A stretch of DNA of 60,456 bases from Candidatus Peregrinibacteria bacterium. GTDB lineage: Bacteria > Patescibacteriota > Gracilibacteria > Peribacterales > Peribacteraceae. The stretch covers positions 1 through 60,456 of the forward strand of contig JACOTD010000078.1 in assembly GCA_016178535.1 (NCBI GenBank), in the 5' to 3' direction. The translations under genes and the position numbers were made by a program. How positions within the stretch are numbered: position 1 is the first letter of the stretch; the number at the start of each line of letters is the position of its first letter. Of this stretch, positions 7,097 to 53,901 are shown one piece after another. The notes under the pieces are model-generated. The model was not told where the DNA came from. It ran no database searches and worked only from the letters and a program-made list of their open reading frames with translations.

Positions 7097-7262
7097 AAAT
7101 GGAAAATGGATAATTGACCCCTCGACACGGCTCAGGATCACTCGCAGATTATTTGCATCACGAACATGTGTCACACTGAGCGAGGTCGAAGTGTGACAAT
7201 TATGGCAGGAATTCTCGTATCTGTATCGCTTCCAACATTATCCATTTTCAATTTTCATACTA
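7097..7262. repeat. Composite REP-like element, family B, copy B2
   Basis: Order of parts: aaatggaaaatggataattgac, then cccctcgacacggctcaggatcac (7118-7141), a 28-nt spacer, then gtcacactgagcgaggtcgaagtgtgac (7170-7197), aattatggcagg, and finally ccattttcaattttca words. The architecture matches 13396-13552 and, inverted, 15809-15985. Confidence 0.75.
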
Positions 7263-7267
7263 GTCGT

Positions 7268-11632: not shown

Positions 11633-12034
11633 TCATTGTCCCATGACGGCGGGGAAGAGGATGAGCACGATGACGATGAGGATGACGATGAAGCTCACGA
11701 GGGATGCGGCAGCCGCGACGTCCTTGGTTGCCCGTAATCCCGCGTGGTACTCCTCGCTCACCGATCCCGCGACCCGCAACTCATCGACGCAGTCCGTGAG
11801 GTGCTCGAGGGCGGTGTTCAGCAGCTCGATCGACAGGAAGAACCCTCCTGCGAGCGCGAGGGCAACCGTCTGCCACCGTTCGACGTTGAAGAGGGAAGAG
11901 ACCACGAGCAGCGCGATGAAGCCCGAGAGGAACAGCCGGAAGTTCCGTTCCTCCTTCAGCGCCTTCTGAAAGCCGCGCTTGGCATGGCCGAAGCTGCGGA
12001 CGGTGGTCTTGATCATGAGGGAAATGTACTCCAT
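11633..12034 (-). CDS. dgkA: Diacylglycerol kinase / undecaprenol kinase family (DgkA)
   Basis: RSFGHAKRGFQKALKEERNFRL...SIELLNTALEHLTDCVD...ATKDVAAAASLV, the DgkA signature with 3 TM helices. Start uncertain: ATG at 12034 or 12016, or TTG at 12082. Confidence 0.85.
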   Translation of the reverse strand: MEYISLMIKTTVRSFGHAKRGFQKALKEERNFRLFLSGFIALLVVSSLFNVERWQTVALALAGGFFLSIELLNTALEHLTDCVDELRVAGSVSEEYHAGLRATKDVAAAASLVSFIVILIVIVLILFPAVMGQ

Positions 12035-12084
12035 TTCCTGTAAACAATGAAAAGCGGTAAGCGGAGGATGCTTATCGCTCAACG

Positions 12085-39991: not shown

Positions 39992-40039
39992 ACGATGCTT
40001 GCTGCTTTCAAAATGCGTCAATATCCCTACAATTGACCT

Positions 40040-41539
40040 ATGCGCGATATTTTCGATCACGAACGGCTCAGTCCTGCCGTTTCTGGATTGTTGCCAAGCA
40101 TGAATCCTTGGTGGGAAGGAAAGCCAGCCAAGCCGCAACCGCCCTTTCATCGATGGGCGTTTTCCATCACGAAGAAGAAACTCGATTCCGACCTCGCGCC
40201 GATCGTTGTGATACGCGGACCGAGGCAGGTGGGGAAAACCACCCTTCAAATGCAGCTCATCGAACACTACATCAAGGACAGAGGCATCGATCCTTCGCGC
40301 ATACTTCGTGTGCAATTCGACGACCTTCCCTCGTTGAGAGAATTGGCAGATCCCATACTGTCCATTGGTCGTTGGTTTGAAAGTCGCGTGTTGAAGCGAA
40401 CATTCAATCAGGCCGCCACAGACGGACAGCCAGCTTTCCTGTTCTTCGATGAAATACAGAACATCGCCGATTGGGCGATTCAGCTTAAATCTCTTGTCGA
40501 TACTCATCGCGTAAAAGTTCTGGTTACCGGCAGTTCGGCGCTACGAATGACCGCTGGAAAGGACAGCTTGGCAGGTCGCATTGCACAAGTGGATCTCGGC
40601 ACGTTGCTTCTGCGGGAAATCGCCGGCATTCGCTACGGGGAAACCATTGAGCCGCACTTGCCCCATAATGGACTTGATCCTTTACTCCTTCCAGATTTCT
40701 GGCGATCGTTGCAGCAGTATGGACTCAAGAATCGGGAAATCCGCGACCGCGCCTTCAGTGCTTTTTCGGCGAGAGGAGGCTATCCCATCGCTCATGTTCG
40801 CGAAGAGACACCATGGCCGGAAATCGCCGAGCAACTCAATGAGAACGTCGTGAAGCGCGCCATTCAGCACGATCTTCGGATCGGGGAGCGCGGCAAACGG
40901 AGAAACCAGGGGCTGCTCGAGGAGGTTTTCCTGCTCGCCTCCCGATACGTCGGCCAATCGCCCGGGCAGGCCGTATTCGTTCAGGAGGTGCGCAGCGCGC
41001 TTCGAGCAAGTGTGAGCTGGGACAAAATCCGGAATTATCTGAAATTCCTGGATTCCGCTCTTCTCTTGAAGCTCATCGAACCCTTGGAGCTTCGACTGAA
41101 GAAGAAAAAGGGGAATTATAAACTCTGCATCTGCGATCACGGGCTCCGAGCCAGCTGGCTGCGCGAAGTGGTTCCCCTCGATCCCGTCGCATTGCAACGC
41201 CTGAGTCATCTGAGCGATCTCGCGGGACATATTGCAGAGAGCGTCGTGGGGTATTTTCTCGCGGGTTTGCCCAACATGAGTATCAACCATTTCCCCGAAC
41301 GAGACATTGAGCCGGAAATCGACTTTATCCTCACCGTCGGCGCGCATCGCATTCCCGTCGAAGTGAAGTATCGGCAACGCATCGATCCCCACAGAGACAC
41401 CTTGGGGCTGCGGGCCTTTCTCGAGAAGACCGTGTACAACGCTCCGTTCGGCATTCTTGTGACCCTCGATGATACCATTGAAATTCCCGATGCTCGGATC
41501 ATCCCCATCTCCTTGCGGTCATTGTTGCTTCTGCGTTGA
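40040..41539 (+). CDS. COG1373-type AAA+ ATPase (AAA_14 plus a DUF4143-like C-terminal domain)
   Basis: NPWWEGKP...IVVIRGPRQVGKTTLQMQLI (Walker A) and AFLFFDEIQNIADW (Walker B). The C-terminal region with IAESVVGYFL...EIDFILT...IPVEVKY is typical of DUF4143 PD-(D/E)xK-like ends. Confidence 0.8.
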   Translation: MRDIFDHERLSPAVSGLLPSMNPWWEGKPAKPQPPFHRWAFSITKKKLDSDLAPIVVIRGPRQVGKTTLQMQLIEHYIKDRGIDPSRILRVQFDDLPSLRELADPILSIGRWFESRVLKRTFNQAATDGQPAFLFFDEIQNIADWAIQLKSLVDTHRVKVLVTGSSALRMTAGKDSLAGRIAQVDLGTLLLREIAGIRYGETIEPHLPHNGLDPLLLPDFWRSLQQYGLKNREIRDRAFSAFSARGGYPIAHVREETPWPEIAEQLNENVVKRAIQHDLRIGERGKRRNQGLLEEVFLLASRYVGQSPGQAVFVQEVRSALRASVSWDKIRNYLKFLDSALLLKLIEPLELRLKKKKGNYKLCICDHGLRASWLREVVPLDPVALQRLSHLSDLAGHIAESVVGYFLAGLPNMSINHFPERDIEPEIDFILTVGAHRIPVEVKYRQRIDPHRDTLGLRAFLEKTVYNAPFGILVTLDDTIEIPDARIIPISLRSLLLLR

Positions 41540-41560
41540 AATTCAGCCTAGCTTCTCTCG

Positions 41561-41637
41561 AAATCCGCGGCGACCTTCGAGAAGAATTTCGGCGGAACCG
41601 TCGCGGAAGAAATCGCGAGGGAATGTCTGGGGAGGTA
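41561..41637 (+). repeat. Relic second copy of the pckA 3' end (~77 nt)
   Basis: aaatccgcggcgaccttcgagaagaatttcggcggaaccgtcgcggaagaaatcgcgagggaatgtctggggaggtag is near-identical to pckA 39914-39991 (aaattcgcggcgaccttcgagaag...gagggaatgtcctgggagataa). Confidence 0.9.
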
Positions 41638-41648
41638 GGAGATCAACT

Positions 41649-44048
41649 TTACCTTTGAGGATTGGAATTGCTATCCACAGACATACGTCGTTCTTCCGTG
41701 GGATACAATTTTTTCAGCACCAATCCCCATGCCTGATGTTGTCGTTCGGATTGGGATGCCACTCGGATTTGTTCAAGGCGTGAACGCAATTCATTCACAA
41801 GTCTGCGCACGTAAGTGTCTCCGCATTCCACCGTATCAAGCCATCGCCAGGCAATTTCACCGGACAGAATTTTTCTCATGTCTGGCATGGTTACTTCCCA
41901 TGGCTGTTTGCCAAGTTTTCCTGCAACGCCTTCGATGTCGGTACGGAAATCTGCAATTGCCTGAGGATCATCCAATAGAGATTCTTCTGAACGAATCACA
42001 CCTGTTCTATGGGTACTTCTCTGTTCTTCGATAAGGGTGCGTATCGCGCGTTCGAATTGCTCTTCGCTTTCCCAGTGGAGACGCCTGCAATTGAACATCG
42101 TACGCATATTCTTGCTATTCACTCTTCCTACGTATTCGTCAGTTCCTCTTGGTTGTCGCGTGAAGAACGCTGCCATGTACGAGTCATCGTTGAGAATGAA
42201 TTGCAGGGAAAGCTGAGGCAGAGTCACCACGATGTGGTGCCCGTGATGAATGGTAGAATAATCGCGTTGCTGCGTATCAGTTGTATCTGCTCCATCCGTG
42301 TCCCACGCGAATTCTGCGCTTTCACGCTGCTGCAGCAGTACTTTGTGAAGACAGGCAAGTCGAGGCATTGATGTTCTCCTTCCCCCAGGTGTTCCTTCTT
42401 GTGCGTGATCGCTACCATCGCCATCCACCGCATCTGTTTGTCGTTCTCGCGAAAGATATATTCCCTCAACATCATTCGAGTGCAGCAGCCGAGACTCCAG
42501 TGTCCGTAAAGAAGGTACACTCATTGCCGACCACTGATCTTTATCAGCTGCGTTGATGCCCGCGATGAGAAATGTCGCGCTAATGTTGTTCGAGTCTTCA
42601 TCAACGGCGCCGGGCAATTGTGGTTTAGTCGTCGAACCTGGATACAGAATATGGACGAAATCTTGAAATTCGACGAATATGCATGAACGAAGCAACTCCT
42701 CTTGCTCCTTCCATTGAGGACAAAGTATTTCGAGCATTCTCTGCATACGACCTGCAAGTCGCGGCAAATTCTCCTTGATCGCAATTGTTTTCTCCAGAAT
42801 TGGAGATGGAAAGGAGAGAGGCGGAATCCAATTTTTATTGCCTGTCATTTGAACATCATCTGGGGATGCAGTGATACCATTTCCGTTATCTGATCTTATA
42901 AGCGACAAAGTACGTTCTTTCGTCTCAGAGAAGCGGACTCCATTGTCACTATCCTTCCAACCATAAGTACCAATGAGATGAGGCAGATTTCTTTTGGCTC
43001 GAATTGACGGCAGATACCCATGGGGAAATCTTGAAAGTATTCCATGTGCAATCTCTACGTTTGCGCATTCTTGTTCAAAATTGTTGAAAGTATCACGTAC
43101 AGCGCCAATTGCATTGCCATAATGCGATGACGATTGCCCAAATTGATGCATTTCTCCATCATTGAGCGGGTCTTTCGCGTGCTTGGGCCGCCGCATTTCC
43201 CAATTTTGATTTTGCGTTTGCAAAAGACGGCGAAACGCTGCTTGTTTCTCTGCGGGGGGAATTGGAAGTTTGCCAAATGCATGGCGCAACATCGATGTCA
43301 AAAATACTACCGAAAAAATTCTTGGATCAATAGTACCAGGTTCAATGATGTCAATGATTTTCTCCATGCATCGAATGCTTATGGCAATAAGCGCCGTGAG
43401 AAATTCTTCTGGAGACAAACTCGGCATTACCGTTCCAATTTCCATTGCGATTGACTCACTGATTTCCTTAGTAAGATCATGCAGTGTTGCCCGTGTTATC
43501 CCTACGCCCATTCGCACACTCTCTCCATTTTCCGTTGTTGTTACCCTTATTCCTTGATAGATCTGATTGATGGTCTCGCATCGTATTGCTATTGCTGGGT
43601 CCAGAACATCCATGATCGGAGCAATTCTCAATCGATCATTCATGAGCTGAGTCTTGGTATCGTCGCGCAATTTTTGAAGACTGATTCTTTCAGTATGATC
43701 ATCCATCATCAAATTTGCTACCATGAGCGGGTAGAGAGCCTTTTCTCTCAGTCTTTCCGAGGATTCTACGGATCTGGTTGGAACAGTTGGATCATCAGTT
43801 GTCTCTGAATCATTTGATATCGCAACTTGTGGGTTCAGCACATTACCAACTTCATGCCGTGCGGTTAAGCGCTCCCGCTCCAATCGTTGACCCAATTCCT
43901 CTTCAATTGCTCGCAGCAAAGTCTCTTCGTCGGGAGCCAGCGTCTTGCCTTTACGAACACGCCGAGGATCATCTCGTTTGCCTTCCAGTTGTTCTTTTTT
44001 ACGTCGCAATAAAGTTGTCTCTGACGAGGCTATTTGGTCTAGTTTCAT
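41649..44048 (-). CDS. Hypothetical protein, 799 aa, AT-richer foreign composition, no recognisable domain
   Basis: Clean 2.4-kb ORF with an ATG at 44048. Codon usage is visibly A/T3-rich, unlike the flanking genes. No TM or signal peptide is present. The N-terminus is charged and coiled-coil-like (KKEQLEGKRDDPRRVRKGK...EEELGQRLERERL). Confidence 0.7.
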   Translation of the reverse strand: MKLDQIASSETTLLRRKKEQLEGKRDDPRRVRKGKTLAPDEETLLRAIEEELGQRLERERLTARHEVGNVLNPQVAISNDSETTDDPTVPTRSVESSERLREKALYPLMVANLMMDDHTERISLQKLRDDTKTQLMNDRLRIAPIMDVLDPAIAIRCETINQIYQGIRVTTTENGESVRMGVGITRATLHDLTKEISESIAMEIGTVMPSLSPEEFLTALIAISIRCMEKIIDIIEPGTIDPRIFSVVFLTSMLRHAFGKLPIPPAEKQAAFRRLLQTQNQNWEMRRPKHAKDPLNDGEMHQFGQSSSHYGNAIGAVRDTFNNFEQECANVEIAHGILSRFPHGYLPSIRAKRNLPHLIGTYGWKDSDNGVRFSETKERTLSLIRSDNGNGITASPDDVQMTGNKNWIPPLSFPSPILEKTIAIKENLPRLAGRMQRMLEILCPQWKEQEELLRSCIFVEFQDFVHILYPGSTTKPQLPGAVDEDSNNISATFLIAGINAADKDQWSAMSVPSLRTLESRLLHSNDVEGIYLSRERQTDAVDGDGSDHAQEGTPGGRRTSMPRLACLHKVLLQQRESAEFAWDTDGADTTDTQQRDYSTIHHGHHIVVTLPQLSLQFILNDDSYMAAFFTRQPRGTDEYVGRVNSKNMRTMFNCRRLHWESEEQFERAIRTLIEEQRSTHRTGVIRSEESLLDDPQAIADFRTDIEGVAGKLGKQPWEVTMPDMRKILSGEIAWRWLDTVECGDTYVRRLVNELRSRLEQIRVASQSERQHQAWGLVLKKLYPTEERRMSVDSNSNPQR

Positions 44049-44054
44049 ATTGAT

Positions 44055-44083
44055 ATATTAATCTATAAATTCTTTAGAGTCAA
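44055..44083 (-). promoter_or_regulatory. Sigma-70-like promoter for the 799-aa gene (candidate leaderless transcript)
   Basis: On the minus strand: TTGACT (44083-44078), a 17-nt spacer, TAATAT (44060-44055), then atcaat and the ATG at 44048. No Shine-Dalgarno sequence fits in the 6 nt between. Confidence 0.4.
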
Positions 44084-44116
44084 CAAAGGCTTTTTGCCTT
44101 CCTTAAGCACTCTTTA

Positions 44117-44236
44117 ACCCCGGCACCTTCTGCTTCAGAAGCTCCACGACGGCGTCCAAATCTTCATTCACCATGATGTGATCGAAGAGATCCTTTCGCT
44201 CGGAAAAGAAGTCGAGGTCTTTCTCCCATTCTTCTG
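44117..44236 (-). repeat. Relic second copy (~120 nt) of the 3' end of the DUF35-GK gene
   Basis: aaccccggcaccttctgcttcagaagctccacgacggcgtccaaatcttcattcaccatgatgtgatcgaagagatcctttcgctcggaaaagaagtcgaggtctttctcccattcttc versus 44770-44890. About eight differences were counted by eye, including a 1-nt gap. Confidence 0.9.
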
Positions 44237-44325
44237 GACGAGTTTTTTGCGGGTTCCTGATTGACATGCACTAAAAGCTTGCATAGAATTGTCTCATTAG
44301 TGGCTTCGGCCTCCGAGGACTCCGC

Positions 44326-44730
44326 TCACGCGGGGTCCGATTTTATATACGAGGCGATGCATGCACGAACGGAAGTGAATTCTTTGGTGGAGATCATGCC
44401 GATTTTTCGAAGGAGCCGTTTACTGCTGATCGTTCGGAGTTGCGACAAGCAAGCGAATGAAACTCCCCGATCATGAGCAATCCGATGATAGTGCTTGCCG
44501 AATCGTTTCTTCGATGTGAGTGGGATAACCCACAGCATGTATCCGTTGAATTTTTTCACAATGAGAACGGGGCGCTCAAAGTGATCGTTCTTCCCGTCAC
44601 TCTCCACTCCCACATTGATCCCAATTGAGCACCACCACACTTCTCGTTCATGAAAAAATACCGTCCGCTTGTCTTCCTGGGCGTCGAGCTTCTTTTTCAT
44701 GCTGTTCCATTGATCGAAGAGTTTTTGCAT
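44326..44730 (-). CDS. PemK/MazF-like toxin, solitary (no adjacent antitoxin ORF)
   Basis: 134 aa: WNSMKKKLDAQEDKRTVFFHEREVWWCSIGINVGVESDGKNDHFERPVLIVKKFNGYMLWVIPLTSKK. This matches the long-form PemK/MazF pattern (..WW...G.N.G.E.dGk...f.RPvlI..kf). It is AT-richer than the host genes. Confidence 0.7.
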   Translation of the reverse strand: MQKLFDQWNSMKKKLDAQEDKRTVFFHEREVWWCSIGINVGVESDGKNDHFERPVLIVKKFNGYMLWVIPLTSKKRFGKHYHRIAHDRGVSFACLSQLRTISSKRLLRKIGMISTKEFTSVRACIASYIKSDPA

Positions 44731-44757
44731 ATCGGCTCACGGCATGAATCTTCAGTG

Positions 44758-45711
44758 TCACGCCCCCCTCAATCCCGGCACCTTCTGCTTCAGAAGCTCC
44801 ACGACGGCGTCCACGTCTTCATTCACCATGATGTGATCGAAGAGGTCTTTGCGCTCGGAAAAGAAGTCGAGGTCCTTCTCCGCATTCTTCAGGCGGTCGG
44901 CGATGTGCTCTTCGGTGTCGCGGCCTCTTGTTCGGAGTCTGTGCAATAAATGACTCAGCATCGCCCGCTTGCTGTTGCCGGGCGGGAGGAGGCCGCAGGA
45001 GAGGATGGAGCGGCGGCCGTACTGTTCGGCGAGGCCTTGGAGCAAGTGCATCTCGGTGATGACGACGGGAATTTTCCCCGCCTTCCAAATGCGCTCGATG
45101 TCCTGCGCGCGGTAGCCGTACAGACGGTCTTCGGATGAGGAAGGGATCTGCGTGCTCGCGATGATCTCGCCTCGGCTCTGGAGTTCAGCGAAGGTTTTCT
45201 TGGCAATGTAGCGATACTCGCCGTCGTCTCCCGCTTTCTTCCTGCGCGTCGTGTGGATCGGCACGTTCTCGAGGTAGCTGGAACACATCTGAACGAGGAG
45301 GCGGCTGATGGTGGATTTTCCCACGCCCGAGGGGCCAGTCAGTGCAAGAATGTATCCAGGGAAGTTCGGCACTTCCTTCGAAACGGGCAGACGTTGTTTC
45401 GTTGTCTCGTTGTGTTGTTGCTTGTCTTGCGATGCAGGTTCGAATGCGACGTCATACATTCGGAGCTTCTCTCCATTGATTCGAGAAAGTCTCATGCGGG
45501 GGAGAACGGCGTCACCAATCGAACAGGGGGCCGTGAGAGGCGCGAGAACGTTGGAGCCGTCTTCGAGCGCGATGAGGGCGATGCGCCGCGGGAATTTCCC
45601 AAAGGCTGCAGGCGGATGCAGGAGGGTCGTCACGGAGACGACGGTGCCGGGCTGCATCTTGCTCCCGCGCTGCTTGAGCGCACGGTGAAGGGAAGGCGAC
45701 GTGTCAGTCAT
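44758..45711 (-). CDS. Fusion protein: DUF35-type OB-fold domain (thiolase/HMG-CoA-synthase partner) plus a guanylate-kinase-like P-loop domain
   Basis: The N-terminal part GTVVSVTTLLHPPAAFGKFPRRIALIALEDGSNVLAPLTAPCSIGDAVLPRMRL fits the DUF35 OB fold, and no Zn-ribbon Cys pairs are present. The C-terminal part LTGPSGVGKSTISRLL...IHTTRRKKAGDDGEYRYI...LYGY...NEDVD fits a guanylate-kinase-like fold. The ATG at 45711 overlaps the thiolase stop by 8 nt. Confidence 0.75.
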   Translation of the reverse strand: MTDTSPSLHRALKQRGSKMQPGTVVSVTTLLHPPAAFGKFPRRIALIALEDGSNVLAPLTAPCSIGDAVLPRMRLSRINGEKLRMYDVAFEPASQDKQQHNETTKQRLPVSKEVPNFPGYILALTGPSGVGKSTISRLLVQMCSSYLENVPIHTTRRKKAGDDGEYRYIAKKTFAELQSRGEIIASTQIPSSSEDRLYGYRAQDIERIWKAGKIPVVITEMHLLQGLAEQYGRRSILSCGLLPPGNSKRAMLSHLLHRLRTRGRDTEEHIADRLKNAEKDLDFFSERKDLFDHIMVNEDVDAVVELLKQKVPGLRGA

Positions 45712-46831
45712 GCATGCGTTCGAGGATATGTATACCACAGCTCGCGCACGCGCCGCCGAAATTATGCGCCATTCCCCACCTCTCTTCGCGCTCTGTCAAC
45801 TGCTTCGCGAGGTCGTTCAGCTGCTTGATGCCGGTGGCGGCGACGGGGTGTCCGCAGCCTTTGAGTCCACCGCTCGCGTTGATGGCGAAGCGCGTCTTCT
45901 TCCCTTCGTACAAATCCTTGTAGAGCGAAATTCCCTCGCCCGGGTTCGCAAAGCCCAGATCTTCCAGGTTGATGAGAGCGGCGATGGAGAAGCAGTCGTG
46001 GGTCTCGAGGCACGAGAGATCGTCGAGCGTGATGTCGGCTTCTTTCAGCGCTCTCCCACAGGCATCCCTCGACGCCGGGAAGCTCGTGATGGACGGACGC
46101 TTCGTGATGCTGACGGCATCGGAGGCGATGCTCGAGGCGGCGAGACGGAATTCGCTCTCGTGATTGGTCGAGAGGATGCAGGCGGCGCCGCCGTCGCTGA
46201 TGGGGGAGCAATCGAGGAGGCGGAGCGGATCGGCCACGAGCGGGCTTTTGGAAACCGCTTCCGGCGTGATGACGTTTCGAAACTGCGCGAAGAGATTCCC
46301 TTTCGCATTCCTGTGATGTACGGCGGAGACGAGGCTCAGCTCTTCCCGCGTGAGGCCGTGCTCGTGCATGTAGCGCGCGGCGATGAGTCCGAAGATACCG
46401 GGGAACGTGAGGCCCGATGGACGATCTTCTTCGCTGTCCGCTGCAACCATCAGCCCCGCGGCGATGGCATCGACGGAGACGTCGGTCATTTTCTCCGCTC
46501 CGACGACGAGCACCGTCTTCGCTCTGCCGCTCTCGAGGAACGCGCACGCCGTGTGAAGGGCGTACGCCCCCGACCCGCAGGCGGATTCCACCCGGATGGC
46601 GGGCGGGCGGTGAGGGAGCAAGGCCGAAACGAGCGAGCCGAGGTGCGCTTGGCTGCTCGTCACTTCTCCGAGCATATTGCTCACGATGATGGCATCAATC
46701 TCCAGAGCCGTGATGCGCGAGGAATCGATGGCCGCCGTCACGGCTTCCTCAATGAGATCCATCAAACTTTTGTCCCATCGCTCGCCGAAGCGGGTTTGGC
46801 CTTGGCCGATGAGGGAGATGGAAGTGTTCAA
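45704..46831 (-). CDS. Archaeal-type acetyl-CoA C-acetyltransferase (thiolase)
   Basis: 375 aa: VESACGSGAYALHTA (nucleophile Cys), ...ETHDCFSIAAL, GGLKGCGHPVAATG, and NFGGACAS. This is the short thiolase form that pairs with HMG-CoA synthase and DUF35. Confidence 0.88.
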   Translation of the reverse strand: MNTSISLIGQGQTRFGERWDKSLMDLIEEAVTAAIDSSRITALEIDAIIVSNMLGEVTSSQAHLGSLVSALLPHRPPAIRVESACGSGAYALHTACAFLESGRAKTVLVVGAEKMTDVSVDAIAAGLMVAADSEEDRPSGLTFPGIFGLIAARYMHEHGLTREELSLVSAVHHRNAKGNLFAQFRNVITPEAVSKSPLVADPLRLLDCSPISDGGAACILSTNHESEFRLAASSIASDAVSITKRPSITSFPASRDACGRALKEADITLDDLSCLETHDCFSIAALINLEDLGFANPGEGISLYKDLYEGKKTRFAINASGGLKGCGHPVAATGIKQLNDLAKQLTEREERWGMAHNFGGACASCGIHILERMHD

Positions 46832-46872: not shown

Positions 46873-47898
46873 TCAGTGCGTTCTGGAATGCTCGATGTAC
46901 TGACTGTAATCCACATGCTGTTCTTCGCGCTCGTCTGGCGGAAGTCGCACGCCGTCTCGCAGCATGGTCATGAAGAATGCGTCCGCTCCGGAGCCCGATC
47001 CGTAGGAAACGAGCAGGATCGTCTCATCCTTCTTCGCTTCTTCGAGAACGAACGTCAATCCCAGCGGCGAGCAGGCGCTGTACGTGTTGCCGATGCGCGG
47101 GACGATGAGCCCATGCCGCAGTTGTTCCTTGGTGATGCCGAATTCCTTGGCGATCGCTTGCGGGAACTTGGCATTGGGCATGTGGAGGATGACGTGATCG
47201 ATCTCTCGAAGATCCAGCTTCGCGACTTCCACGATGCCGCGAATCGCTTCTCGAACATGGTGGAAATACCCCGGTTCCCCCGTAAACCGTCCGGCATGGT
47301 GCGGGAACTTCTCGCCGGATGGACGCCAGAAATCCGGCGTGTCGGTGGTGAAGGAAAGCGTTTCTTCGATCCGCGCGATGGCGCTCGCACTCCTCTCGGA
47401 TCCAAGGAGGAGTGCCGCCGCGCCCGCCGACGCCGTGTACTCGAGCGCATCGCCGGGTTTCGCTTGGGCCGTGTCCGATCCGATGGCGAGGCCGTAGTGT
47501 ATCTGACCGCTCCGCACGAACGCATCGACGATCTGCATCGCGGCCGTTCCCGCCTTGCAGGCGAATTCCAAATCCGCGGCGAAGGAGAAGGGATGCAGCT
47601 CGAGGGCGGTTGCGAGCATCGCGCTCGTGGGTTTGACGGCGTAAGGATGGCTCTCGGATCCCACGAACACGGCGGAAACTTCCGAGGACGCGATCCCCGC
47701 CATCGCGATCGCCTGTTTGCTGGCTTCAAAGGCCATGGTGAACGTGTCCTCGTCGGGCGCGGGAACCGTCTTCTCCTCCACTCCGATGCTCGCGGCAATC
47801 CCCCGGCCATCCTGGCCCCAATGCTCGGCGATGGTTGCCGTCGTGATCCGGAACACCGGGAGGTACCTGCCGAAGCTGACGATGGCTGAGTGGGACAT
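46873..47898 (-). CDS. Hydroxymethylglutaryl-CoA synthase (archaeal type)
   Basis: MSHSAIVSFGRYLPVFRI...DEDTFTMAFEA...VGSESHPYAVKPTS...DLEFACKAGT (catalytic Cys)...ILHMPNAKF...GNTYSACSPLGL. The start is taken at the ATG at 47898. Confidence 0.88.
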   Translation of the reverse strand: MSHSAIVSFGRYLPVFRITTATIAEHWGQDGRGIAASIGVEEKTVPAPDEDTFTMAFEASKQAIAMAGIASSEVSAVFVGSESHPYAVKPTSAMLATALELHPFSFAADLEFACKAGTAAMQIVDAFVRSGQIHYGLAIGSDTAQAKPGDALEYTASAGAAALLLGSERSASAIARIEETLSFTTDTPDFWRPSGEKFPHHAGRFTGEPGYFHHVREAIRGIVEVAKLDLREIDHVILHMPNAKFPQAIAKEFGITKEQLRHGLIVPRIGNTYSACSPLGLTFVLEEAKKDETILLVSYGSGSGADAFFMTMLRDGVRLPPDEREEQHVDYSQYIEHSRTH

Positions 47899-48060: not shown

Positions 48061-49269
48061 TCAACATGATCTGCCAAGCTTCTCATGAGCCTTCGCCAAA
48101 CTATGGCTTGCCAGTGCAGCCAGGAGTGACAATTCCCCCGCGAGCACAGCCGCTCCACAACTCTCCGCAACGTGGCGACAGGGATGTATGGTTCGACAGG
48201 GCTCACCATGACATCCCAAAAGCATGGAGAGACATTGGTTCTGCGCGGGCAGTCCCGTTCCTCCTCCGCGAACTCCGACGAGGATTGCCGGGAGCCGTAC
48301 AGTGATCTTCAATCCGTTCTCAACTTGGGAGACGCTCGTGTCCGCGAGCGATCCTTCCACCACGTGCGCGGCATCTTGTCCGGTTGCCAGGTAAAGCGCA
48401 GCAATCACATTCGCCGCATGAAGATTGCTCCCGATTGCTCCCGCGATCTCGGATCCCAGTTCCAGCTTCGCTCTAGCGACTTCCAGAAGATCGACGCTCG
48501 AGGATTTCAGAATGGATCCAAGAATTTCTTCGGGGATCGTCGCTTCCGCAAAGACCTCGTAGCCCCGACCGCGCTCGTAGGTGCGCAAGCTCGGCTTTTT
48601 ATCGCTCTCCACGTTCGCAGCAACGGTCACGAAGCTGCAGCCGCCAATCGTCTCCGCGATCCACTCGCCCACAGACTGCGCGGCGATCGTGATCATGTTC
48701 ATGCCCATGGCTTCATCGGTATCGGCGGAGACTGTGAGGAAGACGTAGTCATCGCGCTCGTCGATTTCGAAGTTCATGACCTTCAGATGTTTGCTTGTGC
48801 GCTCTGCAATCGCAATCCATTCGGCCGACCTTGTTTTTACACTGTCCACTTTCCCTGCCTGTCCCTGCCTCGCCGGCAGGCGGGCGGCAGGTCCACTTTC
48901 CACTCGCAGCGCAATGGAGCGGCTGATCCCGCGATGTTCGGATGATGTCTTCACTCCACCGGACGCGCTCACCGCCTTGCATCCGCGGTTCACGCTGGCC
49001 ACGAGCGCTCCTTCCGTGGTTGCGAGCGGCAGATGGATATTGTGTTTTTCGTTTGAGCTGAATGTCACGGCCAAAGGTCCCGCATACCCAACGGGAATCG
49101 GCACCGCGCCGAACATCTGTTCGCAGTTCTTCTCGTCTGCAGCTCCGAGATCCTCATCGAGGAAACGCGTCCTGGAAAGATCAATGTCGAGTTCCCGCTC
49201 GATGCGACTGCGCCGCTCATTGCAGCGATCAGTGGGGGAAAGGCCGGGGGGCAGGGAACGAAGATCCAT
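48061..49269 (-). CDS. HMG-CoA reductase (class I-like)
   Basis: CEQMFGAVPIPVGYAGPL...LPLATTEGALVASVNRGCKA...DAMGMNMIT...GSNLHAANVIAALYLATGQDAAHVVEGS...VGVRGGGTGL. It contains an in-frame repeat-derived insert at 48843-48906. Confidence 0.9.
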   Translation of the reverse strand: MDLRSLPPGLSPTDRCNERRSRIERELDIDLSRTRFLDEDLGAADEKNCEQMFGAVPIPVGYAGPLAVTFSSNEKHNIHLPLATTEGALVASVNRGCKAVSASGGVKTSSEHRGISRSIALRVESGPAARLPARQGQAGKVDSVKTRSAEWIAIAERTSKHLKVMNFEIDERDDYVFLTVSADTDEAMGMNMITIAAQSVGEWIAETIGGCSFVTVAANVESDKKPSLRTYERGRGYEVFAEATIPEEILGSILKSSSVDLLEVARAKLELGSEIAGAIGSNLHAANVIAALYLATGQDAAHVVEGSLADTSVSQVENGLKITVRLPAILVGVRGGGTGLPAQNQCLSMLLGCHGEPCRTIHPCRHVAESCGAAVLAGELSLLAALASHSLAKAHEKLGRSC

Positions 49270-49356: not shown

Positions 49357-50364
49357 TCAGTTGATCACATGCGCCCCTTTCCCCGTATGCGCGACAAACA
49401 CCGTGCATCCCTGTTGTTCGTGAGCGAAGTGCAGCACGTCTTCCTTGGCTTCCGCCGGGCAGAAGAGGTGGACGGTGGGACCGGCGTCCATCGTGTAGAG
49501 GACGGGCAGGCGCTTCATCCGCCGGTACACCGTGATCTCCTCGAGGATCAGTCGCGTGTCGCGCGTGAGGTACTGGAGCGAGGGCGTACTCGTGCGCATC
49601 ACCTCGTGCATGTCGAGGCAATCCTCCTCCGCCACGCGTTGGAGCTTCTCGAAGTCCCGTGTGCGGATGGCATCGATGCATTCGCGTTGTCTTCTGGGGA
49701 TCTCCTGCACGCGCTTGGGGAAGAGAGGACTCGTGCGCGCCAGTGAATGACCTTCCGTCGATCCGTACTCCTTCTCCTTCCGGCTCGGGACGATGATGAT
49801 GTCGTAGAGGAGCCAATGTTGATCATCCGCGACGGGAACGGCCTTCGCGCTGTCGATGGCGTCGCCCGTGCCCGCCTCGAGCGCAACGTACCCGTCGAAT
49901 GCGCCGCGCGCTGCGGATCCCGATCCGAGTCTTCCGATCACGCTGATCTCCTCCCGCGAGAGTTTCCGCTCCGTTTCGATGAGTCCCGCGTACGCCTGCG
50001 CGAGGCAACTGAAGACGGCTGCGGACGAGGCGATGCCGATGCCCGGAGGGATCGCGGAATGGATGGTGATCGAGACGGATGCGGGGATCGCTTCGGGAGA
50101 ACCCAACTCGGCGAGATACTGTTTCGTGAGTTCCAGATGACGGTTGAATCGCAGCACGTGCTTCATGGTCATCCTCCGCTCTCTGCCATCAGATTCGAAC
50201 GAGTGAATGTCGAGGACATCCGAGTCATCCACGATGATCTCGACGGAAGGCGTATTGAGCGCCATGGAGAGCGAATCCGCGGCGGGCAGACGCAGGCCGT
50301 CGTTGCGGTTGCCCCAGTACTTGATGAGGGCGATGTTCGGGGTGGAGCGGGCAGTGATTGGCAT
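49357..50364 (-). CDS. GHMP-family (di)phosphomevalonate decarboxylase
   Basis: MPITARSTPNIALIKYWGNRNDGLRLPAADSLSMAL...IPPGIGIASSAAVFSCLA...GSGSAARG...TMDAGPTVHLF. The substrate (mevalonate-5-PP versus mevalonate-5-P) cannot be told from sequence by eye. Confidence 0.85.
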   Translation of the reverse strand: MPITARSTPNIALIKYWGNRNDGLRLPAADSLSMALNTPSVEIIVDDSDVLDIHSFESDGRERRMTMKHVLRFNRHLELTKQYLAELGSPEAIPASVSITIHSAIPPGIGIASSAAVFSCLAQAYAGLIETERKLSREEISVIGRLGSGSAARGAFDGYVALEAGTGDAIDSAKAVPVADDQHWLLYDIIIVPSRKEKEYGSTEGHSLARTSPLFPKRVQEIPRRQRECIDAIRTRDFEKLQRVAEEDCLDMHEVMRTSTPSLQYLTRDTRLILEEITVYRRMKRLPVLYTMDAGPTVHLFCPAEAKEDVLHFAHEQQGCTVFVAHTGKGAHVIN

Positions 50365-50423: not shown

Positions 50424-51284
50424 TCAATGCACAATACTGAATCCAGAGCGTTCGGAAATGAATCGCAGTGCTTCCGAATCTTTGTGCAGTCCCAAGACGA
50501 CTCCGCTGCAGCCAGTCCGCCCTCCCGCACCAATGACTTTCGCTGCACCTCTCATTTCTTCCATTCCCTCGATGAGTCTTTGCACTCGCTGCGGCACTAC
50601 GCCGAGCGCGACTTGAGCGCGGTGATGGTCGGGAATGACAGAAGCGAGCGGTTCGCCTCCTTCGATTCTCTCCGTGCATCGGCCGATGATTTCAAAGAAC
50701 GGCATCAGCTCTTTTTTCCTCGCTTGCACCCACGCGACGAGTTCGGGAGTCGTTTCTCTTGGCATCCCCGTGTCGATGAGGATCATCTCCTGCTCCAGCG
50801 AAGAGGGGAGTGCGATGTCTTTTGGCTCATGGCCGCGCTGGAATCGCAGCGGACGATTATTCCAGATAACGGCGAAGTCGAGGCCGCTGTTCCCCGGGTT
50901 CACGGCATCCTCGATCTGCTGCGCATGATTTTCACAGCCTTCGCCGAACAAGCATCGTGCGATCGCAATGACGGCGGCAGTCGAAGAGCCCATGCCTTTT
51001 CCGATCGGAATGTCATTTTCGATCGTGATTGTCCCGAACCATTTCCGATCTGCGATTTTCTCAGATTCTCGAACAATGCGGTCGAGATAATTTTGCCACG
51101 CAGGATGCGTCATAGACGGATCGCAGCGGAGTTCCAGTGTTCCCGAGTCCCTCTCTTCGAACGTCACGGTCAATCGCTGCCGCGAAGGCATGGCGATTCC
51201 CGGGAAGCCGGAGACGACCGCATGGTCGCCGCTCAGGATAATCTTGCCGGGGACGGAGACAGTGCGAGATGGCATGGAGATCAT
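50424..51284 (-). CDS. mvk: Mevalonate kinase (GHMP family)
   Basis: VSVPGKIILSGDHAVVSG (motif I) and IPIGKGMGSSTAAVIAIARCL (GHMP motif II). Its position heads the mevalonate operon. Confidence 0.85.
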   Translation of the reverse strand: MISMPSRTVSVPGKIILSGDHAVVSGFPGIAMPSRQRLTVTFEERDSGTLELRCDPSMTHPAWQNYLDRIVRESEKIADRKWFGTITIENDIPIGKGMGSSTAAVIAIARCLFGEGCENHAQQIEDAVNPGNSGLDFAVIWNNRPLRFQRGHEPKDIALPSSLEQEMILIDTGMPRETTPELVAWVQARKKELMPFFEIIGRCTERIEGGEPLASVIPDHHRAQVALGVVPQRVQRLIEGMEEMRGAAKVIGAGGRTGCSGVVLGLHKDSEALRFISERSGFSIVH

Positions 51285-51412
51285 TGAGAAATTTGGATGG
51301 TTGGATGGTCAAATGGTTCGCAGGCGATTCTCGGAGCCTCAGGATATTCTATGAACCATCTCACCATCCGTATCCTGTGAAAATTCTCGCAAGGGAGCCT
51401 ACCATACGGGTG

Positions 51413-52291
51413 ATGAATGCCGACATTCCATCCTTCCGAGAGGCGAGCGGTCGACTGCTTCCCCTGATCGAGAAATCCCTCACCGATGCCGTTGCATTCC
51501 CGGGAATTCCCGAGACGACCTTGATCCGTGCGATGCGTTACGCACTTTTGCTTCCTGGAAAACGTCTGCGTCCGCTCCTGGTCTTGCTCGCGTGCGAAGC
51601 GTGCGGCGGTTTTTCTGCGAAGGCGCTTCCTGCGGCGTGCGCCGTGGAGATGGTCCATGCCTTCTCGCTCATCCACGACGACCTCCCGTGCATGGACGAT
51701 GACGATCTTCGCAGGGGGAAGCCCACGAATCACACCGTCTTCGGCGAGGCGCAGGCACTGCTCGCGGGGGATGCGCTGCTCGCACTCGCGTTCAGAACTC
51801 TCGCGGAACATCTGCCGCAGGGGATTGCGTCTTCGTGTGTTCATGAGCTCGCGCAAGCGTCCCTCGCGATGGCAGGCGGTCAATCGCTCGACATGGAAGG
51901 TTTTGGTGACAATCCTCCTCGAGGCGAGATCGAGGGAATGGAACGGAAGAAGACGGGCGCGCTCATCACGGCGGCGCTCGAGATGGGCGGCATCGTCGCC
52001 GAAGCTTCGCAGGAACATCTCGCGGCATTGCGTGAGTATGGATGGCGTATCGGTCTCGCGTTCCAGATCATGGATGATCTCCTCGATGTTGAAGGGTCGC
52101 AGGAAGACACTGGAAAGCGTGTTGGAAAGGATGCGGAAAAGGGCAAGCGGACGCTTCCGGCAATCATCGGAGTAGAGCGAAGCCGCAAGAGAGCGGAGCA
52201 GTTGATCGAGGAAGCATGTTCAGCATTAGAAATATTCCAAAGCGGATCGACTATGCTTCTATCTCTTGCGAATTTCATTGAGGTTCCTTAA
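51413..52291 (+). CDS. Polyprenyl diphosphate synthase (FPP/GGPP synthase family)
   Basis: LLPGKRLRPLLVLLA...VEMVHAFSLIHDDLPCMDDDDLRRGKPT (first DDxxD) and FQIMDDLLDV (second DDxxD)...GKDAEKGKRT. Confidence 0.92.
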   Translation: MNADIPSFREASGRLLPLIEKSLTDAVAFPGIPETTLIRAMRYALLLPGKRLRPLLVLLACEACGGFSAKALPAACAVEMVHAFSLIHDDLPCMDDDDLRRGKPTNHTVFGEAQALLAGDALLALAFRTLAEHLPQGIASSCVHELAQASLAMAGGQSLDMEGFGDNPPRGEIEGMERKKTGALITAALEMGGIVAEASQEHLAALREYGWRIGLAFQIMDDLLDVEGSQEDTGKRVGKDAEKGKRTLPAIIGVERSRKRAEQLIEEACSALEIFQSGSTMLLSLANFIEVP

Positions 52292-52541: not shown

Positions 52542-53801
52542 TCACGAACCGAATCTCCTCTCTCGCTTCATGAATCCGTCGATCGCATTCTGGAGATCCT
52601 CCGGCGTCAGATCCGGAAAGTACTTCTCCAGGAACAGCCACTCCGCGTACGCGGTCTGCCAGAGGAAGAAGTTCGAGGTGCGCTGCTCGCCGGAGGTGCG
52701 GATCACGAGATCGATGTCCGGGAGCTCGGGATGATCCAGATGTGCGCGGAGATCTTCCTCCGTGACGTCTGCGCCTTTCGGAAGCGTTCTGATCGCGCGG
52801 AGCAGCTCATCCTTTCCGCCGTAATCGAGCGCCAGGTGCAGCGTCATCGCCGGATCCTCTGCGGTCGCTCGATCCAGTTCCTCGAGGGAGGTGAGCAGGG
52901 CGGGAGAGATGCGATCGCTGCGGCCGGAACGGATGAGGTGGATGCGATTCTCGATGAGTTTCTCGCGCTTCGTCTCGACGGATTCCTCCAGCAATTCCAT
53001 CAACTTCTTCACTTCCTTGGGATCGCGCTTCCAGTTCTCCGTCGAGAAGCACCAGAAGGTCAGCACCCCGATGCGGCCGTCGTTGCGACACCACTCGACC
53101 AATGCGTCGAATGTCTCCGCCGATTGCTCATGGCCCTTCCATGGCAGAAAGCTTCGCTCCCGCGCCCAGCGGCGGTTGCCGTCGGGGATGATTGCCAAGT
53201 GCAGACGTGGTGATGGCTTTTGCATGCGATGGCGGAACGTTTCTCGTTGTCTCGTTGTCTCGTTGTCTCGTTCAATTCTTGATTGTTGAAAGATTTGGTG
53301 AAGTCCAAAGTGGAACCACGGTGCGAATTGTTCGGGATTTCTTGTCATCTCTCGTTTGAGATCCATGAGGGCGATCCATCGAACGGCCGACGCTTCTTTC
53401 GGATCGGGCTTCACAGGAATCGTCTCCGGTGTTCGACCGAGGAGAATCGTGACGTGCTCATGTTCGACGCCTCTGTGTTGCGGATCCTCCGCGCGATAGA
53501 TGAACGTGCCTTGAATTTCGAGCGGCACATCGATCCCAAGTTCTTCCTGGAGACGTCTCCTCCCCGCAGTCACTGCATCTTCATGTTTGAACAGATGGCT
53601 GCAGCACGTGTTCGCCCAGATTCCGGGCCACAGCATTTTCTCGCTGCTTCGCTGCTGGATGAGGATGTTCTTGCCATCCTCGCTGAAGAGGTACACGGAA
53701 AACGCGCGGTGGAGCGAACCCTTCCCCGTGTGCGCGGCGATCACGTCTTCGGTGCCGATCGCGGCGCCGGAGGCATCGGTGAGGGTGACGGTGCGGGGCA
53801 T
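52542..53801 (-). CDS. Fusion: type 1 isopentenyl-diphosphate isomerase (Nudix) plus undecaprenyl-diphosphate (cis-prenyl) synthase
   Basis: The N-terminal half is LHRAFSVYLFSEDGKNILIQQRSSEKMLWPGIWANTCCSH...LQEELGI (IDI-1). The C-terminal half is HLAIIPDGNRRWARER...VLTFWCFSTENWKR...DLVIRTSGEQRTSNFFLWQTAYAEW...RRFG (UppS). The start is taken at the ATG at 53801. Confidence 0.88.
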   Translation of the reverse strand: MPRTVTLTDASGAAIGTEDVIAAHTGKGSLHRAFSVYLFSEDGKNILIQQRSSEKMLWPGIWANTCCSHLFKHEDAVTAGRRRLQEELGIDVPLEIQGTFIYRAEDPQHRGVEHEHVTILLGRTPETIPVKPDPKEASAVRWIALMDLKREMTRNPEQFAPWFHFGLHQIFQQSRIERDNETTRQRETFRHRMQKPSPRLHLAIIPDGNRRWARERSFLPWKGHEQSAETFDALVEWCRNDGRIGVLTFWCFSTENWKRDPKEVKKLMELLEESVETKREKLIENRIHLIRSGRSDRISPALLTSLEELDRATAEDPAMTLHLALDYGGKDELLRAIRTLPKGADVTEEDLRAHLDHPELPDIDLVIRTSGEQRTSNFFLWQTAYAEWLFLEKYFPDLTPEDLQNAIDGFMKRERRFGS

Positions 53802-53901
53802 GACTTCAGCATAGGCGAGGGTGCGATAGGATGCGAGACGGTGAATTGACTGCGGTGTTCCTGTTGACGACGAGTTGAGGCTGGCTTCCACCAATGATTG
53901 A

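Follow-up and report, generated by a model that had tools for sequence, protein, structure and literature searches.

The window analysed here is a stretch of 60,456 nucleotides from Candidatus Peregrinibacteria bacterium (contig JACOTD010000078.1), and the subject of this report is the gene at 44758..45711 on its minus strand, the last gene of a mevalonate operon, which encodes a protein of 317 aa. The protein joins a DUF35-type OB domain to a kinase domain of the guanylate kinase (GK) fold, and its gene is the best candidate for a kinase that is apparently missing from the pathway. It is 100% identical to NCBI HY285_04870, labelled 'hypothetical protein' in Candidatus Peregrinibacteria bacterium. 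The gene and its operon are laid out below (HMG-CoA, 3-hydroxy-3-methylglutaryl-CoA; HMGS and HMGR, HMG-CoA synthase and reductase; MVK, mevalonate kinase; PMD, phosphomevalonate decarboxylase; IDI, isopentenyl diphosphate isomerase; UPPS, undecaprenyl diphosphate synthase; ORF, open reading frame).

44758..45711, minus strand: fusion gene, DUF35-type OB domain, linker and guanylate-kinase-fold kinase domain, 317 aa
45704..45711, minus strand: 8-nt overlap of the thiolase stop and the fusion ATG, ATGACTGA, translational coupling
45704..46831, minus strand: archaeal-type acetoacetyl-CoA thiolase, from domain and family matches
46873..47898, minus strand: archaeal-type HMGS, start set at Met42 of a longer ORF
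48061..49269, minus strand: class I HMGR, from domain and family matches
49357..50364, minus strand: GHMP decarboxylase with a PMD signature (YWGN, Arg27, GSTEGH), nearest solved structure that of Anaerolinea thermophila PMD
50424..51284, minus strand: MVK-like GHMP kinase, the sole GHMP kinase of the cluster
51269..52291, plus strand: trans-prenyl (farnesyl/geranylgeranyl) diphosphate synthase, on the opposite strand between UPPS and MVK
52542..53894, minus strand: single ORF with NUDIX (IDI type 1) and cis-prenyltransferase (UPPS) domains, two separate genes in relatives

Short overlaps of the same kind as that between the thiolase and fusion genes are found in relatives, with 8 nt at loci L001 and L010 and 14 nt in Ca. 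Peribacter riflensis. No GHMP-type phosphomevalonate kinase (PMK), isopentenyl phosphate kinase (IPK) of the amino-acid-kinase fold or second gmk was found in the cluster or among the 49 scanned ORFs of the window, which were drawn from 54 candidates of at least 90 aa, the other five being 90-108 aa long.

In two features the operon differs from that of relatives. The IDI NUDIX domain (aa 61-194) and the UPPS domain (aa 236-449) lie in one uninterrupted 450-aa ORF (52542-53894), which may be a second gene fusion in the operon or the product of a lost stop codon; IDI and UPPS are two adjacent genes in L001, L015 and Peribacter. The trans-prenyl synthase gene (51269-52291, plus strand) interrupts the operon and is missing from that position in L001, L015 and L017.

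Architecture of the fusion protein

The protein divides into an N-terminal OB domain, a linker and a C-terminal kinase domain, within which two motifs are of particular interest.

45436..45648, minus strand: OB fold, aa 22-92, homologous to the OB half of DUF35 scaffold proteins
45373..45423, minus strand: disordered linker of variable length, aa 97-113, with predicted local distance difference test (pLDDT) values below 50
44782..45363, minus strand: GK-fold kinase domain, aa 117-310, from residue alignment, Foldseek and hhalign
45313..45336, minus strand: P-loop GPSGVGKS, its Lys present in 200/204 family members
45109..45159, minus strand: family signature hairpin ASTQIPSSSEDRLYGYR, with Ala for the guanine-binding Glu, a 4-residue insertion and YGY for YGT

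In the AlphaFold2 (AF2) model (pLDDT 87.6), a five-strand barrel occupies aa 22-92, and aa 1-21 form a helix at the site where a zinc ribbon would sit. The DUF35 OB family PF01796 is matched on aa 22-69 with 24 bits, just below the gathering score of 27.1, while all 48 aligned family members match it (best E 1.5e-12) and all 48 also match the guanylate kinase family. An N-terminal profile compared with the PDB gave three matches, all of them DUF35 proteins, including 6ok1_B and 6esq_E/6et9; the latter is a subunit of the Methanothermococcus thiolase/HMGS complex, and the alignment falls on its OB half, residues 49-107. The zinc ribbon is absent. The N-terminal 115 aa of the window protein hold one Cys, this part is free of Cys in 108 of 179 fusions and contains CxxC in only one of them, and no zinc-ribbon Pfam family is among the 25 families listed of the 33 matched by the 48 aligned members.

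The C-terminal domain is a GK by fold. PF00625 is matched on aa 123-309 with 60.9 bits against a gathering score of 25.2, the AF2 model has the GK fold at aa 121-310, and the top Foldseek matches are guanylate kinases in their closed, GMP-bound form (TM 0.85, 24-28% identity). Profile comparison by hhalign with mouse GK gave a probability of 99.5%. The match to the NCBIfam gmk equivalog TIGR03263 is 80.6 bits and does not reach the cut-off of 160.45. No match to the GHMP kinase fold or its motifs, nor to the amino-acid-kinase fold (PF00696 / K06981), was found in the fusion protein.

The departure from canonical guanylate kinases (Gmk) becomes apparent at the level of single residues, when 204 family members and 66 canonical Gmks are aligned to mouse GK numbering.

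K17, P-loop Lys: K in 200/204 of the family, K in 65/66 canonical Gmks
R41, GMP phosphate: R in 200/204 of the family, R in 65/66 canonical Gmks
R44, GMP phosphate: K in 170 and R in 26 of 204 family members, R in 60/66 canonical Gmks
Y53, GMP phosphate: Y in 198/204 of the family, Y in 63/66 canonical Gmks
Y81, GMP phosphate: Y in 199/204 of the family, Y in 64/66 canonical Gmks
R133, R137 and R148, LID: R in at least 198/204 of the family, R in at least 63/66 canonical Gmks
S37, guanine: I in 188/204 of the family, S or T in 63/66 canonical Gmks
E72, guanine: A in 164, S in 25 and T in 10 of 204 family members, E in 60/66 canonical Gmks
T83, guanine: Y in 200/204 of the family, T or S in 55/66 canonical Gmks
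D101, first Asp of LDxD: I in 119 and V in 78 of 204 family members, D in 30, E in 14 and I in 11 of 66 canonical Gmks
D103, guanine: E in 195/204 of the family, D in 51/66 canonical Gmks

The catalytic and phosphate-ligand residues (P-loop Lys, LID Arg, R41, R44, Y53 and Y81) are conserved in at least 96% of the 204 members, whereas at three of the four guanine-contacting positions another residue stands in more than 90% of them. In the window protein the catalytic residues are kept (the P-loop, R156, K159, Y166, Y198 and LID R258/R262/R273), and the guanine-reading positions hold I152, A185 and Y200. Within the signature hairpin ASTQIPSSSEDRLYGYR, E194 and R196 are near-invariant. By this alignment to GMP-bound structures, the machinery that transfers a phosphoryl group from ATP to a phosphate acceptor is kept, and hydrophobic side chains now form what was the guanine pocket; these changes run from polar to hydrophobic, and the pocket would fit a small apolar acceptor tail. 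A catalytically dead, MAGUK-like GK domain does not fit these residues, the P-loop and catalytic residues being intact in the window protein and in about 98% of members.

Much of this had been anticipated in a preliminary description of the gene, made from the DNA alone. Its 8-nt overlap with thiolase was found again at 45704-45711 (ATGACTGA), and its reading of the N-terminus as the OB part only, with no Cys pairs, agrees with the PF01796 match and the single Cys in the N-terminal 115 aa. The complete GK-like domain that it described is borne out by PF00625 (60.9 bits), the AF2 model and Foldseek (TM 0.85), and the P-loop and TTR motif that it held to be kept are both present in the alignment. 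The three substitutions that it had proposed by eye also hold: the Ser of S-x-TTR is replaced, with Ile two residues before TTR; IIASTQ aligns with FIEHAE, so that the guanine-binding Glu becomes Ala; and YGY stands in place of YGT. The profile and structure comparison with Gmk that it suggested points to descent from guanylate kinase, with the guanine contacts replaced across the family and the catalytic residues kept.

The family to which the protein belongs is conserved, and most of the roughly 200 members retrieved come from Peregrinibacteria or Peribacteria. A full-protein search returned 676 relatives, the best 120 of which are 285-342 aa long, share the same architecture and are 55-83% identical; the named members among these best 120 of 676 are mostly Peregrinibacteria or Peribacteraceae. 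When 1.84 billion representative proteins were searched with the kinase domain, 18 cluster representatives scored 120-290 bits, and typical free-standing guanylate kinases (about 180-230 aa) scored about 55-90 bits. Unfused family members of about 200 aa are 39-64% identical to the window kinase domain and carry the same signature. Judged by its sequence, the fusion kinase is a conserved subfamily of its own, distinct from canonical Gmk. Loss of the P-loop motif is confined, among full-length members, to P0127, P0132 and P0138, in which its Lys is Arg or Thr. At least two of these, P0132 (L010, 4064-4951) and P0138 (L005, 2400-3311), are also without the TTR motif and the LID arginines, although their genes continue to stand after those for HMGS and thiolase. 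These three are probable pseudo-kinases, as far as their motifs tell. Database labels for the family are 'guanylate kinase', 'OB-fold domain-containing protein' and 'hypothetical protein': JGI/IMG, UniRef and nr label members 'guanylate kinase', and KEGG-HMM assigns K00942 to the fusion of Ca. Peribacter riflensis. Such labels can mask the real gmk call and hide an isoprenoid role.

The decarboxylase and the missing step

Which kinase is missing depends on the substrate of the operon decarboxylase, since a PMD-type decarboxylase makes it more likely that the missing step is the conversion of isopentenyl phosphate (IP) to isopentenyl diphosphate (IPP) than that it is PMK. The decarboxylase of the window scores 178.8 bits to the PMD of Anaerolinea thermophila (6n0x) and at most 115 bits to any diphosphomevalonate decarboxylase (DMD). 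The specificity of the 6n0x enzyme, a PMD, has been converted to the DMD type by mutagenesis (PMC9254496), and within the aligned region its variant 6n0z shows two changes, YWGN to YWGK and GSTQGH to GSTQGM. The window decarboxylase carries Asn and His at these two positions, as do its orthologues in L001 and L015, while the two DMDs for which alignments were available, Arabidopsis 6n10 and S. solfataricus 5gmd, have Lys and Met. In a published comparison, DMDs have Lys21 with Ile or Asn at position 27, and PMDs lack the Lys and have Arg27 (Dellas et al., 2013, Table 4; PMC3857490); with Asn21 and Arg27, the window decarboxylase has the PMD pattern of that table. On the DMD equivalog it scores 167.5 bits, just below the cut-off of 171. 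Going by these scores and motifs, the operon decarboxylase is of the PMD type.

A complete genome is available for a relative, Ca. Peribacter riflensis, whose gene table is given in the supplement of Anantharaman et al., 2016 (PMC4736985). Its operon reads idi-uppS-MVK-(HAD)-MVD-HMGR-HMGS-thiolase-_643, where gene _643 is the fusion (312 aa, K00942 with 103.7 bits) and overlaps the end of the thiolase gene _642. The canonical gmk of the same genome is gene _213 (200 aa, K00942 with 157.7 bits). No gene in the table is assigned to the KEGG orthologies (KOs) of PMK, IPK or PMD (K00938, K13273, K06981, K17942), to another GHMP KO that would mark a third GHMP gene, or to any KO of the methylerythritol phosphate (MEP) pathway. 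Because Peribacter makes peptidoglycan and has UPPS, its IPP must come from somewhere. The mevalonate pathway of this organism was called 'near-complete', with genes named for the formation of mevalonate 5-phosphate (MVA-5P) and for the conversion of mevalonate 5-diphosphate (MVA-5PP), and with the step between them unaccounted for (PMC4736985).

The same gene order recurs in other genomes. Seven fusion loci were examined, namely the window, L001-L003 (one locus), L005, L010, L015, L016 and L017, and the fusion follows thiolase in all seven. The fusion gene adjoins thiolase and HMGS genes in the window, L001-L003, L005, L010, L015, L017 and Peribacter; in L016, which begins within the thiolase gene, thiolase is the only one of the two in view. 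The full operon, IDI-UPPS-MVK-decarboxylase-HMGR-HMGS-thiolase-fusion, is present in L015 and in a 1.03-Mb Peribacteraceae contig (L002); that of L017, from a Peribacteria genome, is the same without a decarboxylase between MVK and HMGR (L017, 5906-6355), and no alternative decarboxylase or amino-acid-kinase gene was found there within 10 kb on either side. A contig scan with a generic P-loop pattern yielded three fusion loci (L015-L017) and 77 ordinary gmk loci, which is a count of loci and not a phylum-wide statistic.

Among the unfused homologues, UPPS lies within two genes in five of the eight contexts examined (L004, L008, L009, L013 and L014), and in L009 the order is IDI-UPPS-kinase, with the genes overlapping. 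The unfused homologues beside IDI and UPPS have no MVK or decarboxylase gene within 10 kb. In bacteria of the Candidate Phyla Radiation (CPR), conventional IPK is found mostly in Microgenomates, and its gene is as a rule syntenic with IDI-I, including where a genome has no other mevalonate genes; CPR mevalonate genes cluster with cis-prenyltransferase (Hoshino and Gaucher, 2018; PMC6107057). Taken with these reports, the UPPS/IDI context gives the GK-like gene the genomic position that IPK holds elsewhere, in a lineage from which no IPK is reported.

These comparisons bear on three further points of the preliminary description. It had called for a search of the whole genome for a genuine gmk, and in the relative Peribacter a separate canonical gmk stands beside the fusion. 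It had found no PMK or IPK, and none is present in the window cluster or annotated in the Peribacter table. It had proposed that co-occurrence with mevalonate genes be checked, and the fusion follows thiolase in all seven loci, with the full operon recurring.

The DNA around the operon holds several other features. The region from about 40000 to 44750 has a GC content of 46-53%, against about 58%, and looks like an inserted island. It includes a PemK/MazF-like toxin gene (44326-44730), 27 nt downstream of the fusion and with no obvious antitoxin, an ORF of 799 aa without a Pfam match (41649-44048) and an AAA_14/DUF4143 ATPase gene (40040-41539). Downstream of the fusion, L001 has genes for glycogen synthase, GH57 and GH15, of which the latter two lie at 32-36 kb in the window. 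A DgkA-family gene (prokaryotic diacylglycerol/undecaprenol kinase) at 11633-12082 on the minus strand may be relevant to the recycling of the polyprenyl carrier lipid from the operon. At 7166-9988 on the plus strand, a gene encodes a 940-aa protein with domains like those of type IV secretion coupling proteins (TrwB/TraG/HerA).

Proposed reaction and its alternatives

We propose that the C-terminal domain is a kinase that evolved from guanylate kinase and would move the gamma-phosphate of ATP onto a phosphate monoester, giving a diphosphate. The substrate would most likely be IP, converted to IPP, and the reaction would complete a route of the Chloroflexi/haloarchaea type, in which mevalonate kinase is followed by PMD and then by IP kinase. 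That the GK-like domain is an IPK of a new fold has, in our estimate, about an even chance of being correct. The preliminary description had put the domain forward as a PMK or an IPK; the computational checks that it had suggested all support this candidacy, and the decarboxylase signature refines it, IPK being more likely than PMK. In archaea and some bacteria the DUF35 protein has been described as bridging thiolase and HMGS, and the N-terminal OB half of DUF35, without its zinc ribbon, may dock the kinase onto the thiolase/HMGS complex, a placement that we infer from homology and gene order only. Tethering the last pathway step to the first two may be of benefit. A wider form of the proposal, which we advance tentatively and consider rather less than evenly likely, is that this is a third, independently evolved IPK, of GK fold, next to the IPK of amino-acid-kinase fold and in functional parallel to the GHMP and animal PMKs; in Peribacteria the DUF35 OB domain, without its zinc ribbon, would tether it to thiolase and HMGS, so that the first two enzymes and the last kinase form one assembly, while those relatives that stand unfused next to IDI and UPPS would enable symbiotic CPR bacteria to salvage IP and dimethylallyl phosphate (DMAP). 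A literature search brought up neither a GK-like PMK or IPK nor a DUF35-GK fusion, in keeping with the earlier remark that the arrangement was undescribed.

Several observations weigh against an IPK assignment. The role of the two specificity positions in the decarboxylase rests on PDB sequences and a secondary statement (PMC9254496), and the likeness of this enzyme to the Anaerolinea PMD could in part reflect the relatedness of CPR and Chloroflexota and not function. The separate gmk was seen in a relative; of the window's own genome 60 kb were covered, and no gmk was found there. Peribacter encodes two proteins of the amino-acid-kinase family that fall below their KO thresholds, the proB-like _735 (265 aa, 173.9 bits) and the argB-like _544 (437 aa, 76.9 bits); since proA, proC, argC, argJ and argF are absent from its gene table, both are orphans, and either could be a divergent conventional IPK, although neither lies near isoprenoid genes. 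The near-invariant R196 and R201 lie next to the acceptor tyrosines, where they could serve the carboxylate of phosphomevalonate no less than they would suit IP. The retention of fusions with a degenerate P-loop implies that the domain can persist without catalysis and hints at an additional structural role. Four unfused homologues are directly preceded by a gene of the histidine-phosphatase superfamily (His_Phos_1), which suggests a kinase/phosphatase pair and could point to another phospho-metabolite:

L004, 9490-9981: His_Phos_1 and GK-like genes 12-19 nt apart (as in L014)
L008, 5073-5600: His_Phos_1 and GK-like genes overlapping
L011, 719-1357: His_Phos_1 and GK-like genes overlapping
L014, 9380-9988: His_Phos_1 and GK-like genes 12-19 nt apart (as in L004)

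Finally, close unfused homologues are annotated in metagenome-assembled genomes under four 'Candidatus Kentron' labels (gammaproteobacterial ciliate symbionts). One of them (L095, 10001-10714; ENA ERZ27275413 k141_22803) lies on a 58-kb Kentron contig next to mlaA, trpBA, argH and lpxA, and no isoprenoid genes were found around it on that contig; the Kentron homologues reflect either horizontal transfer or a different role.

If the domain were instead a PMK, converting MVA-5P to MVA-5PP, the decarboxylase would be a classical DMD, as the Peribacter authors and KEGG annotate it. The chemistry would be identical (phosphate to diphosphate), and this is the gap left in the Peribacter pathway (PMC4736985); moreover, the DMD equivalog score of the decarboxylase (167.5 bits) is near the cut-off of 171, animal PMK shows that a P-loop NMP-kinase fold is capable of the reaction, and Arg196 and Arg201 could serve to bind the carboxylate. 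We nevertheless consider this unlikely. The decarboxylase has no Lys for binding the distal phosphate, shares with characterised PMDs their Asn, Arg and His, and is much closer to the Anaerolinea PMD than to any DMD, while the hydrophobic replacements in the kinase pocket suit an isopentenyl tail better than a hydroxy-acid. A PMK would also be useless to the unfused homologues, which sit beside IDI and UPPS with neither MVK nor decarboxylase within 10 kb. Less probable again is a kinase for some phospho-metabolite unconnected with C5 isoprenoid precursors, perhaps a non-GMP nucleotide or, on the model of PhnN, a phosphosugar, with the DUF35 fusion an accident of gene order. This would account for the weak NCBIfam PhnN match (25 bits), the histidine-phosphatase neighbours and the Kentron context, and nucleotide recycling is plausible in the glycan-synthesis clusters (WecG, UDP-GlcNAc 2-epimerase, Wzy) in which unfused genes occur. 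However, the fusion and its position after thiolase are kept across members 48-83% identical to the window protein, which speaks for selection over chance; hydrophobic residues, and not another hydrogen-bonding set, have taken the base-reading positions, the recurrent neighbour is UPPS or IDI, and Peribacter has no other annotated candidate for an essential step.

A mainly structural or regulatory domain, serving as a nucleotide- or CoA-binding module on the thiolase/HMGS complex while an orphan amino-acid-kinase protein elsewhere is the real kinase, seems to us very unlikely. It would have a precedent in the dead GK domains of MAGUK proteins, which bind partners, and would draw on the orphan genes of Peribacter and on P0132 and P0138, which stay fused after thiolase despite the loss of the P-loop Lys, TTR and LID arginines; the new domain might even compensate for the lost zinc ribbon. 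Yet the conservation of every catalytic residue in the window protein and in about 98% of members is unexpected for a purely structural module, and unfused versions exist without any DUF35 part. The annotation given by JGI and KEGG pipelines, an ordinary or redundant guanylate kinase paralogue, we hold to be slightly more improbable still: three of the four guanine contacts are substituted in over 90% of the family, the NCBIfam equivalog cut-off is missed by half and a canonical gmk is found elsewhere in the complete relative genome, even though the Pfam and KOfam thresholds are passed (the Peribacter fusion reaches 103.7 bits for K00942, whose threshold is 60), the top structural matches are GMP-bound and the catalytic residues are intact.

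Peregrinibacteria need the mevalonate pathway for their cell-wall carrier lipid, and that of Peribacter has been described as 'near-complete' since 2016; the fusion gene provides a concrete, cloneable candidate for the missing step and makes the gap directly testable. If the domain is an IPK, a new protein fold would join those known among IPP-forming enzymes, CPR bacteria of this group would be shown to use the phosphomevalonate decarboxylase route, and correction would be due for a widespread 'guanylate kinase' annotation (JGI, UniRef, nr and KEGG-based pipelines), a label that can make purine and isoprenoid reconstructions wrong at once. It would also offer a small P-loop kinase for the isopentenol-utilisation pathways of metabolic engineers. 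With the kinase fused to a scaffold domain, one may ask whether the two ends of the pathway are physically coupled.

Comparison with known systems

The archaeal DUF35 scaffold (6esq/6et9; also PhlB and MucC) has a homologous OB domain, and, as in that system, the fusion gene stands with the genes for the two scaffolded enzymes, directly after HMGS and thiolase. The fusion differs in being without the zinc ribbon and in carrying a 200-aa C-terminal kinase domain.

With Gmk (EC 2.7.4.8; PF00625, TIGR03263) the kinase domain shares its fold, P-loop, LID arginines and phosphate-acceptor residues and, by prediction, its type of reaction, from phosphate monoester to diphosphate. In contrast to Gmk, the guanine-reading Ser, Glu and Thr are Ile, Ala and Tyr, with a 4-residue insertion in the NMP-binding hairpin and a 6-residue insertion before the LID; the fusion reaches half the equivalog cut-off, is encoded in a mevalonate operon, is fused to DUF35 and coexists with a canonical gmk in the complete relative genome. 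PhnN, a ribose 1,5-bisphosphokinase, is a GK-family enzyme with a non-nucleotide phosphate acceptor and illustrates that the fold can change its acceptor. Membership in this family was rejected, as TIGR02322 is matched with only 25.3 bits against a cut-off of 156, and the context of PhnN is phosphonate operons.

Animal PMK (PF04275; human PMVK, 3ch4) is a known case of the mevalonate pathway taking on a P-loop, NMP-kinase-like enzyme. Comparison by hhalign with human PMVK (query sequence verified as 3ch4_B) gave a probability of 0.8% over 31 columns, covering the P-loop only, and PF04275 is not among the 25 families listed of the 33 matched by the 48 members, so that membership in this family was rejected. 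Set against the 99.5% for mouse GK, this makes the parallel one of analogy and not of descent. The comparison with animal PMK that the preliminary description had drawn thus stands as a precedent for a P-loop NMP-kinase fold in the pathway and fails as homology, which does not extend beyond the P-loop; the likely substrate of the fusion would differ as well.

Conventional IPK (amino-acid-kinase fold, K06981) has an unrelated fold and no sequence similarity to the fusion kinase. What the two would have in common is the proposed reaction and position in the pathway, the partnership with a PMD-type decarboxylase where no PMK is present in the window or the Peribacter table, and a neighbourhood of IDI-I and cis-prenyltransferase genes like that reported for the IPKs of CPR bacteria. 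On this reading, a known step of the pathway has apparently passed to an enzyme that differs in fold and has a new domain architecture.

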